DNA of 64,000 nt from NCBI GenBank assembly GCA_036679605.1, contig JAZDCZ010000289.1:32001-96000 (forward strand). Direction: 5' to 3'. The position numbers were made by a program, and so were the translations under genes. Position 1 is the stretch's first letter, and every line of letters starts with the position of its first letter. Source of the stretch: Gemmatimonadota bacterium (GTDB lineage: Bacteria; Gemmatimonadota; Gemmatimonadetes; Gemmatimonadales; GWC2-71-9). Below the pieces are notes generated by a model. The model was not told the origin of the DNA, ran no database searches, and saw nothing but the letters and a program-made list of their open reading frames with translations. This document shows, one piece after another, positions 29,934 through 51,175 of this stretch.

Positions 29934-30791
29934 ATGGGCGGACCCGTATATCGTTTCGCCGAGGCTCTTCGAACCCTGCTGGTCTCCGGTTCAGTAGAGG
30001 ACCTCGAAACCAGCTGGACAAACCTGAATATAGAAGCTGTGGGATGGCAGGCCCTGGCGCAGGCGCGCCGCCGAGACGTACGGTCTTGGGAGTGGGCCCT
30101 CCGAGAAGTAGACGGCCTATTGCTTCGGCTGCTCCACCGGGTTTCTCGTATGGCCGACGCCTCGGAGCCGGCGTGGGTACGTCTTGCGACGTTCCGAGTC
30201 CCAGCGTTGGAACGGCTCCAGCATGCCACTGCGGCTTGCTTGGCCGGCCAGCGCTTTGGCCTCGCCGGTCTTCACACGGTTAGTGAGGACCGTTCGGCCC
30301 CTCTGGCGCGGAGGTACTTCGCGTTCTTGGCACTTGCCGAGCGGCATCCGCTTGGGGACTGGCCTGTTTTTGCCAGATACCTAGCGCCAGGAGTCCATCA
30401 CGCATTTCTCGGTACTGCTGCAGAAGCGGCGCGGTTTTATCCGGAATGTGGTACGGTGGACGCCCTGGTGGAGTTGTTCCAGAAGGTCTGGTCGGATCTC
30501 CCGTTACGGGCGTTCTTGGGCCCGCGCATTCTCAAGTCCCTTCACTTCATTGCGGAGCGATCGACTCTCCCGTTTCTGAGACAGCTTCTCGTCGTGGGTC
30601 ACACCGCGAGGGATCCTGAGCATTGCGAGATTACTCGGGCTCTCGTGATCGTGAGACGGTTAACGGGTAAGGTCGAGGCCAGTAGCAAGTTCCCGGATCA
30701 CAAGCTTGACGCGGTCGCGTCAATATTGGAGGCTGCGACGAACGCTTTCGATGAGTATCGAGATGTATTCAGTCCGATCTCGGTTATCTGA
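29934..30791 (+). CDS. hypothetical helical protein
   Basis: 285 aa ORF divergent from the binding-protein gene. Confidence 0.72.
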   Translation: MGGPVYRFAEALRTLLVSGSVEDLETSWTNLNIEAVGWQALAQARRRDVRSWEWALREVDGLLLRLLHRVSRMADASEPAWVRLATFRVPALERLQHATAACLAGQRFGLAGLHTVSEDRSAPLARRYFAFLALAERHPLGDWPVFARYLAPGVHHAFLGTAAEAARFYPECGTVDALVELFQKVWSDLPLRAFLGPRILKSLHFIAERSTLPFLRQLLVVGHTARDPEHCEITRALVIVRRLTGKVEASSKFPDHKLDAVASILEAATNAFDEYRDVFSPISVI

Positions 30792-30797
30792 TCGCGG

Positions 30798-31433
30798 CTA
30801 GTTGGACGGTGCTCGGAACACCCTTCTCAGGATCAAAGTGCCCTTCTCTTCATCCGTTTCTTCAAAAAGGAGCGAGTTCCCGCCCGGATCGTAGCGGGCA
30901 GTCCACTCCAAGGAGTCGGGTAACCAGGTAAACGTGATGATGCGAGTGAATCGGTCCCACTCACCCTCGACCCAGCTTCCTTCCGGAAACCACCTCCACC
31001 GTGCAATGCCGTTGCGAAACATCGAAAGTTCCACAGGGCGATCACTCTTCCCTAGAGGCGTGCCGAGCCAGCGTCCCCAGAGTGGCCTAGCCAACGGATC
31101 TTGCGCGGTCATCGTAATGATCTTGCCCTCGTCCGTGGTGAGCAGTAGCCGGTTGAATGCAAATCGATAGCTAACCGCAAACGATGTGTCTCCGATCGCC
31201 ACGATTGAGTCATCGGACACGACGAAATCGAGCACGTGTGAATCATTCAAGATGAGCATGGTGTCGCCGTAGAATTCCAGGTGCATCGGGCGACCCATGT
31301 GGGTTCCAACCCATCGTGTCAGGAGAGAATCTGTGTGCTGAGCCTGGATATCCTGAGCCAGGAGAGCGATTCCCAGTGCTAGGCAACAGATTCTTGGCAA
31401 GATGATGTGTTGAGACAGATAGTGGAGTGCCAA
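30798..31433 (-). CDS. hypothetical secreted protein (two lipocalin-like 'L.g.W.G' repeats)
   Basis: Signal-like segment ending IQA, LLTRWVGT and LWGRWLGT repeats. Start uncertain. Confidence 0.68.
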   Translation of the reverse strand: MALHYLSQHIILPRICCLALGIALLAQDIQAQHTDSLLTRWVGTHMGRPMHLEFYGDTMLILNDSHVLDFVVSDDSIVAIGDTSFAVSYRFAFNRLLLTTDEGKIITMTAQDPLARPLWGRWLGTPLGKSDRPVELSMFRNGIARWRWFPEGSWVEGEWDRFTRIITFTWLPDSLEWTARYDPGGNSLLFEETDEEKGTLILRRVFRAPSN

Positions 31434-31547
31434 GGACCTTCACCTCGTGGCGATTAGCGACACTAGGAAATTGGTGGAGCTTGCGGTCCGGCGCAACGCT
31501 TCGCGATCTTTTGGCTGTCCTCCAGTTGCGGTTATCTTCCAATAGTC

Positions 31548-32168
31548 ATGACTGTATCAGCGATAATGCGAACCACGCAAACGTTCTCCGATCGTGCTGA
31601 GGCCTTAGGGCACTTCTTCCAATGTGCTGGAGAAGCTCCGCGCTTCATAGCATACGATGAAGAGCTGGGATGTCCGCTGCACAATGCCTTGGCCGCTCTC
31701 GAGTGGACGTTGGCCGTAGGGATACTGCGTGATACCGACTTGGTTCATGCCGCACGGCTCAGCGGTGAGACAGCGGCCGCAATGGTCGAACGGCGCGTCG
31801 ATGGACGGCGGATATTTGTGTACATGGGACCGCGGATGGACGCCCCGCCAGCGGATCCGTACGAGGGATCGTTGTTATATGACGAGCCCGGTGTCAGGGC
31901 CTACGAGTTTGCTCAGCGAGTCCATGCCCTGGCTCACTTTCTCCGAGCAACCCAAGGAGTGGGTAGTGTTATCTCTTTCCTCTCACGACGGGCCCCCGAG
32001 TTAAAGCACGTGCGACGTTGGCTGAGCGTTCTGTTTCAGCCACCTGCTGAGAATGTGTCGAATGTCTTGCTTGCCGGCTGGTTCGCGACTAGCGGAGGTG
32101 GGGTAGTCTTCGCGCCCAAATCGGTCGGTGAGCCCTATGTATACGATGAAGTGGGAGTGGACAGCTAA
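31548..32168 (+). CDS. hypothetical protein with internal repeat
   Basis: 206 aa. F.DRAEALGHFF..AG and FAQRVHALAHFLRATQG repeats. Confidence 0.75.
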   Translation: MTVSAIMRTTQTFSDRAEALGHFFQCAGEAPRFIAYDEELGCPLHNALAALEWTLAVGILRDTDLVHAARLSGETAAAMVERRVDGRRIFVYMGPRMDAPPADPYEGSLLYDEPGVRAYEFAQRVHALAHFLRATQGVGSVISFLSRRAPELKHVRRWLSVLFQPPAENVSNVLLAGWFATSGGGVVFAPKSVGEPYVYDEVGVDS

Positions 32169-32311
32169 CGAGTTTTGTGGATTGGGTGGTTAAACCTTTT
32201 TTGCACAACTCCACATGGGCGTGGAAAGTGGTCGTAAGGTGTCCAGAGAGAGTTTGTTAGCATTCCACATTGACTGCACACGAACTGTGTCAGCCGAAGA
32301 AACATCGGCGC

Positions 32312-32339
32312 TTGCGCGGTTTTCGCAACTCCATAAATT
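32312..32339 (+). promoter_or_regulatory. putative sigma70 promoter of the structured RNA
   Basis: TTGCGC (32312-32317), 16-nt spacer, TAAATT (32334-32339), ending 8 nt before the first helix. Confidence 0.5.
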
Positions 32340-32345
32340 AGCTTG

Positions 32346-32774
32346 TGTAACTCAGGGGAAGGGTCGAGGCCCCGGCGTCGAGACTACGCCCTGAGTTAAC
32401 GCCCCCAGCGAGAATTCCGGGGAGGTTGCCGAAGCAAACAAGGGCTCAGGTGACCAACGATCCGGGTGAACACCTCGACTCGGGGCTGGCGAGACCAGTC
32501 GCGTGTCTTGCCCACGCTGATGTAGCGCCTCGGCGTGCAGTGTAAGGGGTCGGTCCGCGACTCGATCTGACTTGCAGCGCTCACACGGGTGAACCTTGCG
32601 GCTCGGCCAAGCTGCTTGGGAATGGAAGCCGGAGCTCCCGAAAGCCCTACCGCGGATTCATCAGTCCATGCGGTGGCTGAAGGGAAGAAGAACAGAGGGA
32701 GCAATTCCCCTGGCTCCGGGTAACCGGTGTGTAAGACGGCGGGTCACTGTTACGGTGCGCCCGCCGTCTTTTTT
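32346..32774 (+). ncRNA. putative ~430-nt structured non-coding RNA of unassigned family
   Basis: No credible ORF. Many helices, GNRA-capped hairpins, upstream promoter and an intrinsic terminator (see findings). Confidence 0.65.
32733..32774 (+). terminator. intrinsic terminator
   Basis: AAGACGGCGGG (32733-32743) / CCCGCCGTCTT (32760-32770) followed by a T run. Confidence 0.85.
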
Positions 32775-32863
32775 GTCCTATCTGAAAGTGTTCTGTTTTT
32801 TTTCGATCACGCCAGAGTGGAATCGGCCGTGTCTCGACGAGGGACATTCGCTACACTAACGTC

Positions 32864-33073
32864 ATGACCCCCTGGTTTCGCATGCCCGCCAAGAGAGAGG
32901 GGCTTCGTCGGGCAGCGCTTGATGATCTTCGCCACTCATTGGCCGCAATCCGCTGCGCTATCGAGCTTGCGGAGCAAGGACACGAAACTGGAGAGCGAGA
33001 GCAGCTACTTCTTAGGGTGGCGACGCGACAGCTCGTGAGTGCGGAAAGTACAGTTGACAAAGTGGCTAGGTGA
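32864..33073 (+). CDS. small hypothetical protein, HisKA-like helix pair
   Basis: 69 aa. LDDLRHSLAAIRCAIELA resembles an H-box helix. Confidence 0.4.
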   Translation: MTPWFRMPAKREGLRRAALDDLRHSLAAIRCAIELAEQGHETGEREQLLLRVATRQLVSAESTVDKVAR

Positions 33074-34553
33074 GCGGAGTTCTTTCCGCGTCACCCAAAT
33101 GCTGGAGGGAAATATCTCGTTCTGCAGCAGGAATCATTGTCATCTCCAGATTGCCTTTCGGCAACAGATGGACTACGGAGTTCGCGTAGTATTCGAGTAG
33201 CGGTCGCTGCGCTGGTTGGATGACGAAGTTCTCTCCCTCCCTCACTACCAGGCGACGCATCCGCAGGGTCAGCCATGCTCGATCCAAGATCACTTCTGCA
33301 GCCCTGTCTTTCTGGACCAGCTTTGCCCCAGTCAGCCTCAGGTGATCCCGGTATTGGTCCAGTAACTCTAGCAGTGCGTGCTTCTGAACGACCGTCGCGC
33401 CAAAGCTAAGAAGAGCCGCGGCCACAAGAGGTACCGGAGTAACCGGCATGATGTCGGCGATTCTGTCCATGACTCGGCCAGCCAACTGCTGGAGTTTCGG
33501 CAGTCTCTCTTCCCTTGGCAGTCGCAGAGCGTCAGGGTTTTGTGCAGTCCAGTTCTTCAAAGAAATGGGAGTGCCAAAGTTGACGGCTACACGGCCATAT
33601 CGCTTGAGGTTTCCAGTTAGGAGTCGGACAGTATTGAAAAACAGGTAGTGCAGAACGGTGGTCATTTGGCGCAGCCGCCCCGGTCGCTCGTGGTCCGGCA
33701 GCAGTTCCATGATGAGTGAGCGATCCTCCAGGACGCGGTCATAGTTGATGGCGACGGGCACCAACCAAATGTCTCCCGTAAAGTCGGGATCGAGAATAGT
33801 ACGGACGCTGTAATCGAGCAGACCCACTCTTGGCGGGCACATCATACCTGTTTTCGTGAGCCCGCCTTCGAGAAAAATTCCCTGGGTTACTCCGTGCTTT
33901 GTAATGAGCTGAACATAGCGTTCGAGTACGGTGTGATAGAGCGAGTCATGGAAGCCACGCCGTACGAAGTAAGCACCGAATGATTTGAACACATACTCGA
34001 GGGGCCAGACGCGTGCCCACTCACCCACTGCATAACTGATGCTAACCCCATGGGCAAGAACGTAGGCGGCCACGATGTAATCCGCGTTAGAGCGATGATT
34101 CATGAGGTAGAGCACGACGTCGTTGCGGGGCAACGTGTCAAGAGCTTTGCGATCCTGATACTCTGAACTCACTTGATATAGGAGTCGGATTACGGCGCGG
34201 GAGATGTTGTATCCGATTTTGTAGTAAGAGAGCACGTGAAAGAAGGGCACGATCTCGTCGATATAGTGTTCGACCCGCACACGAGCGTCCATCTCGCTCA
34301 CCCCACGCTCTCGGCAGTGTTCCTGCATGGCATCGCGGATCGCTCGGTCGATCATGAGTTTATCTCGAACGGTTCTCTTGCTTACCAGCTTGTAGCGATC
34401 GAGTCGCAGTTGAAATCGATGTACCGCACGCAAAATGGAGCGATTCAACCGGTTGATGATTGCTCTTCGGGTTGAGCGGATTGTCCAGAGCACCATGCCG
34501 CCGGCAAGCAGAATTGCCGTAGACAGTGCCACCAGAGAAACCAAACGAGTCAA
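33066..34553 (-). CDS. glycerol-3-phosphate acyltransferase-like (PlsB/PlsC family)
   Basis: NHRSNADY (HX4D), FGAYFVRR, IFLEGGLT, VPVAINYDRVLE. Confidence 0.9.
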   Translation of the reverse strand: MTRLVSLVALSTAILLAGGMVLWTIRSTRRAIINRLNRSILRAVHRFQLRLDRYKLVSKRTVRDKLMIDRAIRDAMQEHCRERGVSEMDARVRVEHYIDEIVPFFHVLSYYKIGYNISRAVIRLLYQVSSEYQDRKALDTLPRNDVVLYLMNHRSNADYIVAAYVLAHGVSISYAVGEWARVWPLEYVFKSFGAYFVRRGFHDSLYHTVLERYVQLITKHGVTQGIFLEGGLTKTGMMCPPRVGLLDYSVRTILDPDFTGDIWLVPVAINYDRVLEDRSLIMELLPDHERPGRLRQMTTVLHYLFFNTVRLLTGNLKRYGRVAVNFGTPISLKNWTAQNPDALRLPREERLPKLQQLAGRVMDRIADIMPVTPVPLVAAALLSFGATVVQKHALLELLDQYRDHLRLTGAKLVQKDRAAEVILDRAWLTLRMRRLVVREGENFVIQPAQRPLLEYYANSVVHLLPKGNLEMTMIPAAERDISLQHLGDAERTPLT

Positions 34554-35578
34554 ACTGGAGGCCGGGGGCCGGGCTTGTCATGACGGTACGCCATGCTCTT
34601 GAGACGTGCAATTCGGACGGCCATTGGCGGGTGTGTTGCCAAGAGGTTAGCCAACGCACCTTCCTTGTGAGTGAGCCTGCGGCCCAGTGGATCAGCGATG
34701 CAAAGATGTGCGCTTCCTCTCTTGATCGTCTTGGTGGCTCCGCTCACATCCTCGATCTTGCGAAGCGCGGTAGCTAGCGCTTCCGGGTTTCTAGTGAATT
34801 GGGCAGCTGTGGCGTCCGCCAGGAATTCCCTTTTTCGGCTGACTGCGAGTGCCAAGAGTCGGGATACTATGGGAGCGAGAATGACACTGATGATCCACAC
34901 AACCAAGAGGATGGCGATGAGCGCCCCTCCCCCCTTCTTTCCGCCCGAACTTTTTGAACTACGACCACGTCTGCCTGGACCACCGAACCTGAGGATGCGC
35001 GAAGTTCCGTCCGCCACCAGAGCCATGACACCGACCAATGCTGCGAGCAGCGTCATCAACTTTACATCGTGATTTCGAATGTGCGCCATCTCGTGTGCGA
35101 CCACTGATTGAAGCTCGTCTCTTTTAAGGAGTTTGAGCAAACCCTCCGTTACGGCGACGTGCGCGTGGTGTTCATCATGACCAGTTGCAAAGGCGTTGGG
35201 GTCTTGATCGGGAACGATCCATATGGTTGGTCGGGGAATTCCAGAGGCAATTGCCATCTCCTCGACTACGTTGACCAGAGTTTTCTCTTCCTGTTTCGAC
35301 GGTGTCAGAAGCTCCCACGCGCCCGTTGCCCAAAGGATTTGCTTTGGACCCCGCTTCCACGCGTGCCATGTCATGCCGGCGGCCAGCAAAGTGGCAGCGA
35401 TGCCGAAGAGCGGGATAACGTGGTGATAATCTTGCGGTGGTGCTTCGACGGTTGATAAGTAGAAAACAACATCACCCCCGAAACCGATCCACGCGAAGAA
35501 CAGCAGAAAGACAGTTACGAGGGTGGCAGATCGGCGTCGATTCGAAGCTTGCTGTTCGAATAGGTTTTCTTCACTCAC
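34550..35578 (-). CDS. htpX: M48 family Zn metalloprotease
   Basis: PNAFATG, HEMAH, SRKREFLADA, THPP. Adjacent to lemA. Confidence 0.9.
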   Translation of the reverse strand: MSEENLFEQQASNRRRSATLVTVFLLFFAWIGFGGDVVFYLSTVEAPPQDYHHVIPLFGIAATLLAAGMTWHAWKRGPKQILWATGAWELLTPSKQEEKTLVNVVEEMAIASGIPRPTIWIVPDQDPNAFATGHDEHHAHVAVTEGLLKLLKRDELQSVVAHEMAHIRNHDVKLMTLLAALVGVMALVADGTSRILRFGGPGRRGRSSKSSGGKKGGGALIAILLVVWIISVILAPIVSRLLALAVSRKREFLADATAAQFTRNPEALATALRKIEDVSGATKTIKRGSAHLCIADPLGRRLTHKEGALANLLATHPPMAVRIARLKSMAYRHDKPGPRPPV

Positions 35579-51005: not shown

Positions 51006-51077
51006 GGCGCCGTGGCCAAGTGGTAAGGCGGAGGTCTGCAAAACCTCTATTCGGCAGTTCGAATCTGCCCGGCGCCT
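51006..51077 (+). tRNA. tRNA-Cys (GCA)
   Basis: Acceptor GGCGCCG/CGGCGCC, D arm GCC-AAGTGGTAA-GGC, anticodon arm GAGGT-CTGCAAA-ACCTC, T arm GGCAG-TTCGAAT-CTGCC, U discriminator. CCA not encoded. Confidence 0.97.
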
Positions 51078-51175
51078 CTCCGCTCGCTTTGCGAGCGATC
51101 GTGGGCCGCACAGCTTCGGTCAACGCCGCTCGTCTCTGACTCGCGGCTTACGGTCGAATCTGCCCGGCGCCTCTC
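51059..51175 (+). repeat. 22-bp direct repeat of the tRNA-Cys 3' end
   Basis: TCGAATCTGCCCGGCGCCTCTC at 51059-51080 and 51154-51175. Confidence 0.9.

Follow-up and report, generated by a model that had tools for sequence, protein, structure and literature searches.

An uncatalogued class of large, free-standing structured RNA with a double-pseudoknot core in Gemmatimonadota

Organization and expression of the locus

The window, a 64,000-nucleotide stretch of contig JAZDCZ010000289.1 from a Gemmatimonadota bacterium, carries an intergenic gap between a single-copy orphan gene for a 206-amino-acid acidic protein (31548..32168, forward strand) and a convergent glycerol-3-phosphate acyltransferase gene (33066..34553, reverse strand; PF01553 and PF19277), a neighbour that is considered to lie outside the system described here. 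Between them, at 32346..32774 on the forward strand, is what is almost certainly a genuine noncoding RNA gene of about 430 nt, the start of which was set from the position of the -10 box. Two more orphan ORFs, at 29934-30791 (+) and 30798-31433 (-), have no Pfam or NCBIfam family; the 285-aa one occurs in 23 of 44 genomes of family f1 and in none of the other families searched. A lone tRNA-Cys gene at 51006-51078 is the only tRNA in the window, none adjoins the RNA, and ARAGORN detected no tmRNA in the window.

A sequence-only reading of this DNA had described the gap as lacking any credible ORF, and comparison with homologues agrees. Two ORFs cross the RNA and neither is conserved: of 113 homologues, 35 and 24, respectively, keep the frame open, and in 76 and 83 the length differs by something other than a multiple of three. 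Folding of the forward strand is stronger than that of shuffled sequences (z -4.1; 0 of 100 shuffles as good), whereas the signal on the reverse strand is much weaker (z -1.7; 6 of 100).

The promoter proposed in the same reading, a -35 box TTGCGC and a -10 box TAAATT separated by 16 nt (32312..32339, +), is conserved, although a strict promoter scanner returned no promoters and did not list it. Its -35 context is common to 105 of the 113 homologues (of the other eight, seven lack the context and one is too close to the end of its contig). In 103 of the 105 the -10 box follows at 16 nt, and the family consensus is TTGCGC-16-TATATT. Column profiles of the 105 loci also define a conserved element, CCGAAnAAA-n4-GGCRC, that abuts the -35 box (32294..32311, +) and has one further copy in the same genome, with no RNA. 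Further upstream (32176..32280, no strand assigned), an array of (T)CCACA/TGTGG boxes holds fixed positions across the 105 loci, at a density of 2.5 CCACA-type boxes per 200 bp compared with 0.14 in shuffled sequence. We take these to resemble DnaA boxes, and they also resemble the boxes beside the genome's own dnaA, from which we infer a DnaA-type binding protein; they nevertheless differ from the textbook DnaA box at the 5' end. At the other end of the gene, the predicted 11-bp terminator is present (32733..32774, +), with a hairpin at 32733-32770 and a U run that is kept, as at least four U at the hairpin end, in 89 of 112 homologues.

Several related observations were made elsewhere. At G000:C401:9590-9760 in the source genome the promoter module recurs, complete with box array, CCGAAnAAA element and -35 box but with no RNA homologue behind it; this second module may be a relic of a lost copy, another member of a regulon, or contamination (the genome is 6.3% contaminated). 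Ahead of extra RNA copies, CRP/FNR-type boxes are unsupported, with one clear case in 20, and three short extra copies (L224, L225 and L241) share a different upstream pattern of three TGTG-type direct repeats. The source genome additionally encodes a 657-aa frame with two DnaA-type ATPase domains (G000:C91:97736-99325), present in four relatives as well, while its ordinary dnaA is on C419.

Public RNA libraries support transcription of the gene. Of 24 listed runs that match the RNA, 16 are on record as RNA, and four of them, from four studies, were compared over 30800-34600. Depth fell in the four bins covering the RNA, reaching about 8,100, 240, 2,900 and 3, and was zero outside them except for 4.3 in one bin; because the runs were picked with the RNA sequence itself and the contigs sum over relatives, these figures do not fix ends or strand and are a poor measure of level. 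Three runs hold contigs 97-99% identical to the window (223, 312 and 313 nt, at depths of 155, 25 and 146), and in these the flanking genes are uncovered. The near-identical contigs of the four runs begin at 32417-32427, leaving the first hairpin uncovered, which may reflect processing or contig breaks.

Covarying core, pseudoknots and outer domains

Comparative analyses support about 15 helices through compensatory changes. Among 27 full-length sequences that are 59-94% identical, 77 of 112 predicted pairs show two-sided changes, and the columns that covary most strongly among 113 non-redundant sequences are those of helix pairs. At the centre is a 97-nt core (32486..32582, +) of three hairpins, P5 (32488-95/32505-12), P6 (32513-20/32530-37) and P7 (32541-45/32572-76 and 32549-53/32562-66), joined by two pseudoknots. 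In PK1, loop 5 (GUCGCG, 32498-503) kisses loop 7 (CGCGAC, 32556-61), and in PK2, loop 6 (32524-28) pairs with the strand after P7 (32577-81). P5 is paired in 99% of cells and P7 in 98-99.5%. Across 61 sequences, the 37 core pairs are formed in 99.0% of cells, a level reached by none of 500 shuffles and compared with 31-46% in slid controls, and 22 pairs show two-sided changes. The variable pair of PK1 appears as G-C, A-U, C-G, G-U and U-G, with two further swaps in one copy, and a PK2 pair switches from C-G to U-A in 13 of the 61 sequences; these are counts of sequences and not of events, as kin are not independent, and several pseudoknot pairs never vary. A less circular test of PK1 comes from metagenomes, for which the search pattern left both PK1 loops free. 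Among the matches listed, there are 103 distinct cores, of which 77 pair at all six positions, 23 do so after a one-letter shift (judged by eye), and three pair at five of six. Additionally, several PK1 pairs have changed in a compensatory way in extra copies L076/L228 and L234 (loops UUCGUA/UACGAG and AUCACG/CGUGAU), as has PK2 in L234.

The core is flanked by two larger domains. On the 5' side, P1 (32348..32398; 32348-57/32389-98, +) is a variable hairpin that is lost in several paralogues, and P2-P4 (32403..32484, +) form a three-way junction in which P2, P3a and P3b are paired in 83-84%, 97% and 92% of cells, respectively, in the 113 sequences. On the 3' side, a domain of P8 to P12 with purine-rich junctions (32582..32731, +) is closed by the long-range helix P8 (32582-90/32723-31; 92% paired) and includes P9, which has a GGCC loop (95%), P10 (32629-34/32714-19; 97.5%), P11 (97.6% in its middle) and P12 (98.5% for P12a). 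At the base of P10, GAAG (32625-32628) stands opposite GGUA (32719-32722), with G32628 facing G32720 in 101 of 113 rows, an arrangement that we take to resemble a loop-E/sarcin-ricin motif. No pairing partner was found for the conserved AAGGGC loop of the P2-P4 domain. P3 contains a K-turn motif (G32422 A32423 / 3-nt bulge 32456-58 / G32459 A32460, +). Of 91 rows in which the 5' loop is present, 90 show its signature of a C helix, a 3-nt bulge and tandem G-A pairs, as defined in the available text of PMC9723947.

Either outer domain may be missing from natural copies. Variants occur that lack P1, the whole 5' domain (L027, L081 and L241) or most of the 3' domain (L037 and L088), and two are reduced to little more than core and terminator (L235 and L243). 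Every variant found retains the core, in part because homologues were sought with it, and in L242 and L243, both minimal copies, the PK1 pairing has decayed.

The detailed fold had been drawn in part correctly by the sequence-only reading, which identified several helices, drew others wrongly, and did not recognize either pseudoknot, the K-turn or the linked protein. Its 10-bp P1 (77% paired, 183 compensatory cells in the 113 homologues) and its CACGCTGA/TCGGCGTG helix, here P6 (99.7% paired, 98 cells), are borne out. The hairpins CTACCGC/GCGGTGG and GGGA/TTCC exist, but in a shifted register. In contrast, covariation gives no backing to TTGC/GCAA (51% paired), GGCTGG/CCAGTC (72%), CCAAG/CTTGG (80%), the CCGG-GTAA-CCGG hairpin (76%) or the long-range pairing of CCGGGTGA with TCACACGG (55%). 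A second long-range proposal, GGGCTC/GAGCTC, is likewise unsupported, bringing such pairings to six: it is 89% paired but with only four compensatory cells, and its GAGCTC side covaries instead with 32714-32716 and 32685. Two further candidates of our own were rejected. For a third pseudoknot between AGGGC (32441-45) and GCCCU (32644-48), G32644 covaries with C32677 (five A-U rows; 97.6% paired) and the AGGGC side does not follow (87.7% paired, two compensatory cells). Pairing of loop 9 with a GGC was dropped because that GGC is already used in P11.

Distribution and linkage to an orphan protein

Homologues were found by BLAST in 45 of 61 relatives and in 110 of 301 genomes of the phylum. With the core covariance model, the RNA is present in 73 of 74 genomes of family f1 and 3 of 3 of family f3, which probably form one clade, and in none of 74 genomes from ten other families of the phylum. 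Unpublished genomes enter some tallies: G015 that of the 61 relatives, G208 and G097 that of the 301 genomes, G097 also the covariance-model and protein tallies, and G129 the tally of 6S in f1; all of them were kept out of the alignments, models and adjacency count. An exact-pattern scan of species-level genomes returned 60 loci, all titled Gemmatimonadota and mostly Gemmatimonadales, and a looser pattern gave at least 120 matches in metagenomes; other phyla were covered by exact patterns alone, which cannot find remote relatives. No remote homologue appeared at E up to 1 in five genomes of other families. The DNA next to the acyltransferase gene in two f2 genomes likewise yielded none, as did pattern searches of viral contigs and blastn searches of plasmids and phages. 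In 75 genomes, the RNA is present once in 58, twice in 15 and three times in two, and in four long assemblies it lies 35-135 kb from dnaA. Retention in f1 and f3 is near-universal.

The distribution of the 206-aa protein follows that of the RNA. Of 151 genomes, 76 encode it, and both the genomes listed and the counts per family coincide with those for the RNA. In 74 of 75 genomes its gene and an RNA core are no more than 2 kb apart; the RNA of the remaining one sits at the end of a contig. Among 60 loci (56 with enough upstream DNA), 53 have the gene upstream on the same strand, whereas in f3 it is downstream and inverted in all five loci, and it still adjoins L243, a copy cut to the core, one hairpin and the terminator. 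By comparison, a control orphan 1.5 kb further off is in only 23 of 44 f1 genomes. The acyltransferase gene, the other neighbour named for a synteny check, is downstream on the opposite strand in 28 of 60 loci (53 with at least 900 nt downstream). More generally, 41 frames downstream of the 60 loci were scanned; of the 27 with a Pfam match, 26 are on the opposite strand and have varied functions, which argues against a riboswitch.

The protein itself is an orphan, with 118 representatives among 1.84 billion, no Pfam, NCBIfam or Atlas match, and no PDB sequence match under E 0.19. Its AF2 model is a globular alpha/beta fold (pLDDT 86) with no Foldseek match at E up to 0.001, a best Z score of 6.4 and hence no clear structural relative; these negative results do not show a new fold, and no nuclease fold was found in the comparison. 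The mean pI is 5.6 (range 5.1-6.3).

The extra RNA copies, present in 17 of 75 genomes, have no 206-aa gene beside them. Some adjoin genes for Hsp20, CBS, BON, hemerythrin, PRTase or S30AE/HPF proteins, and others adjoin unrelated genes. In a single case (L237, 3404-4062), an extra copy directly follows an S30AE/HPF (raiA-type) gene on the same strand. L224, L225 and L241, which lack the 5' domain, are followed after the terminator by a same-strand gene (PP2C or MFS).

Candidate function and relation to known RNA classes

The RNA is an uncatalogued class. Rfam 15 gave four matches to it at E up to 10, all of 16-18 bits and far under cut-off, and none at E up to 1 to 20 homologous loci, so that the search suggested in the sequence-only reading returned no family at cut-off. 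Rfam presumably covers raiA, OLE, ROOL, GOLLD, HEARO, riboswitches, ribozymes and introns. RNase P, tmRNA and SRP RNA, which that reading had already set aside, each have their own over-cut-off gene on another contig. Because there is no Rfam family, covariation is strong, the distribution is limited to two families and RNA-library cover is confined to the RNA, its proposal of a stand-alone, lineage-restricted large ncRNA stands. Open full-text literature, from which subscription papers are mostly absent, yielded no paper on such an RNA in Gemmatimonadota; 'gemmat' is absent from the main text of PMC11109978, whose supplement could list the RNA, and, supplements aside, from 10.64898/2026.09.22.753630. 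The class and fold are new, while the mode of action may be of a known type.

Tentatively, and with somewhat less than even confidence, we favour an abundant, trans-acting ribonucleoprotein scaffold of the OLE/raiA type, the core of which binds the orphan protein and the supply of which is tuned to growth state. With loops 5 and 7 kissing and loop 6 paired to the strand after P7, the core would form a compact unit binding and controlling a protein, for which the 206-aa product is the likeliest candidate, and the 5' and 3' domains would be accessory. An L7Ae-family protein, encoded in this genome at G000:C65:26735-26959, may be recruited by the K-turn to assist folding, much as OapC acts on the K-turn of OLE RNA (PMC9723947, in the text available). 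Through the DnaA-type box array, transcription would follow the state of growth or replication; in stress or dormancy, RNA could come from extra copies driven by other promoters; and the RNA would tune growth-state transitions, as raiA/ModT and OLE do. This scaffold reading is consistent with the covariation of core and pseudoknots, including PK1 in metagenome cores matched with free loops, with the shared distribution and close linkage of RNA and protein, even in the inverted order of f3, and with the near-invariant K-turn alongside an L7Ae-family gene in all five genomes tested. Convergent downstream genes, library depth on the RNA and not on its flanks, and the stress-related-looking company of some extra copies (Hsp20 to S30AE/HPF) point the same way. 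Several observations weigh against it. The candidate partner is acidic and has no known RNA-binding fold, and shared ancestry alone could give the co-distribution; linkage may equally be inherited gene order, as the acyltransferase and HtpX genes also stay near the RNA in about half of loci. Extra copies occur away from the protein gene, some beside unrelated genes, and one of the five genomes with an L7Ae-family gene (G037, from another family) lacks the RNA. Lastly, the boxes deviate from the DnaA consensus at the 5' end, CRP/FNR boxes before extra copies are scarce, and library depth measures level poorly.

The first of the alternatives, a new ribozyme class, is unlikely. Here the double-pseudoknot core would be the active site and the 206-aa protein a cofactor, as in RNase P, of a lineage-specific housekeeping RNP enzyme with replication-linked expression. 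Consistent with this, 24 of the 97 core positions are invariant across 61 sequences, several of them in linkers and bulges, the core persists in all variants, and, according to the portion of PMC10861870 available, catalysis is the role of most of the large bacterial ncRNA classes whose function is established. However, no Rfam ribozyme matches, PK1 has decayed in L242 and L243, and the flanking frames offer no intron, mobile-element, reverse-transcriptase or tandem-repeat context, with no nuclease, transposase or reverse transcriptase gene among 41 and 46 of them.

Next, and also improbable, is an RNA-polymerase binder working like Ms1 or 6S, an option raised in the sequence-only reading that is now weakened. 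The RNA is stand-alone and abundant, with one to three copies under different promoters, Rfam 6S is in none of 56 f1 genomes, and the best Rfam E-value is to Ms1 (RF02566). That match is at chance level, however (E 0.12; 16.4 bits against a cut-off of 162), Ms1 has no match at E up to 1 in the 20 homologous loci, RF00013 does not match the 430-nt RNA, and the multi-branched, pseudoknotted fold differs from a long hairpin with a central bubble. Furthermore, a diverged 6S-like gene missed by RF00013 is present in the source genome at G000:C173:93528-93696 (minus strand), recovered with a profile of three weak f2 hits (E 2.5e-11) in the same gene neighbourhood as in f2; replacement of 6S by the RNA is rejected on this ground.

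Ranked after these, and doubtful, is assembly of the RNA by itself into an oligomer or cage, in the manner of ROOL, GOLLD or the OLE dimer, held by the self-complementary GGCC loop of P9 and with PK1 possibly formed between chains. Loop 9 is GGCC in 84 of 111 rows, and the available part of PMC12286853 offers precedent in palindromic GGCC kissing loops and in a pair drawn as tertiary that proved intermolecular. Against this, 21 rows have CGACGG, the extra copies carry further loops that are not palindromic and none has changed to a different palindrome, some lineages have lost the 3' domain entirely, and there is no phage association.

Type III toxin-antitoxin pairs use pseudoknot RNAs to hold a protein inactive, and the strict co-occurrence and adjacency of RNA and protein, with a compact pseudoknotted core, would suit an antitoxin or inhibitor of the orphan protein. 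Vertical, near-universal retention close to dnaA in place of patchy spread, absence from the plasmids, phages and viral contigs searched, and the lack of tandem repeats and of a detected nuclease fold make this distinctly improbable. The last alternative is very improbable: a leader acting in cis as a riboswitch or attenuator, or else a DNA element, for instance oriC. In its favour are the same-strand genes after three short extra copies (L224, L225 and L241), the DnaA-like boxes and the proximity to dnaA; against it are convergent genes behind 26 of 27 main copies, a terminator apart from the fold, and pseudoknots and G-U-tolerant covariation that mark an RNA. The GC skew of two genomes turns at dnaA, some 100-120 kb away from the RNA, and oriC is rejected on this ground.

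Few bacterial RNAs are at once large, highly conserved and pseudoknotted, and the small number of classes known are ribozymes or RNP scaffolds. The present RNA adds a new structural class, retained in 76 of the 77 genomes from two Gemmatimonadales families of a soil-and-sediment lineage and seen in the metatranscriptomes of four studies. It also provides points of entry that are uncommon for orphan RNAs: a minimal core of about 100 nt and truncations at either end, all occurring naturally, together with paralogues and a candidate partner protein that has no clear fold match.

Compared with known systems, the RNA is like Ms1 and 6S in standing alone with its own promoter and terminator and in having paralogues under different promoters, but has another fold and an Ms1 score of 16 bits against a cut-off of 162, and the genome has a separate 6S-like gene. 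OLE RNA reportedly has the oapA gene adjoining it. Its OapA is a membrane protein, whereas the neighbour here is a soluble alpha/beta orphan as modelled by AF2, and the 430-nt RNA has no Rfam match, has its own terminator and lies after the protein gene. Nonetheless, both are large and ornate, with protein partners (candidate, in the present case) and a K-turn (PMC9723947, available text); the K-turn is a common motif and not specific to OLE. ROOL and GOLLD are similarly large, pseudoknotted and abundant, with kissing loops (PMC12286853, in part); they are often in phages, prophages and tRNA islands, whereas the 430-nt RNA was not found in the phages or viral contigs searched and has no tRNA beside it. 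RaiA differs in its length of about 200 nt and its occurrence in Bacillota and Actinomycetota, has no Rfam match here to its P1-P8 consensus, and lacks the three-hairpin core and dedicated neighbouring protein gene of the present RNA. Even so, raiA/ModT, as described in the accessible parts of PMC10861870 and PMC11706538, is likewise stand-alone, abundant and vertically kept, with optional peripheral domains, rare minimal forms and two covarying pseudoknots, the last being a shared trait and not homology.
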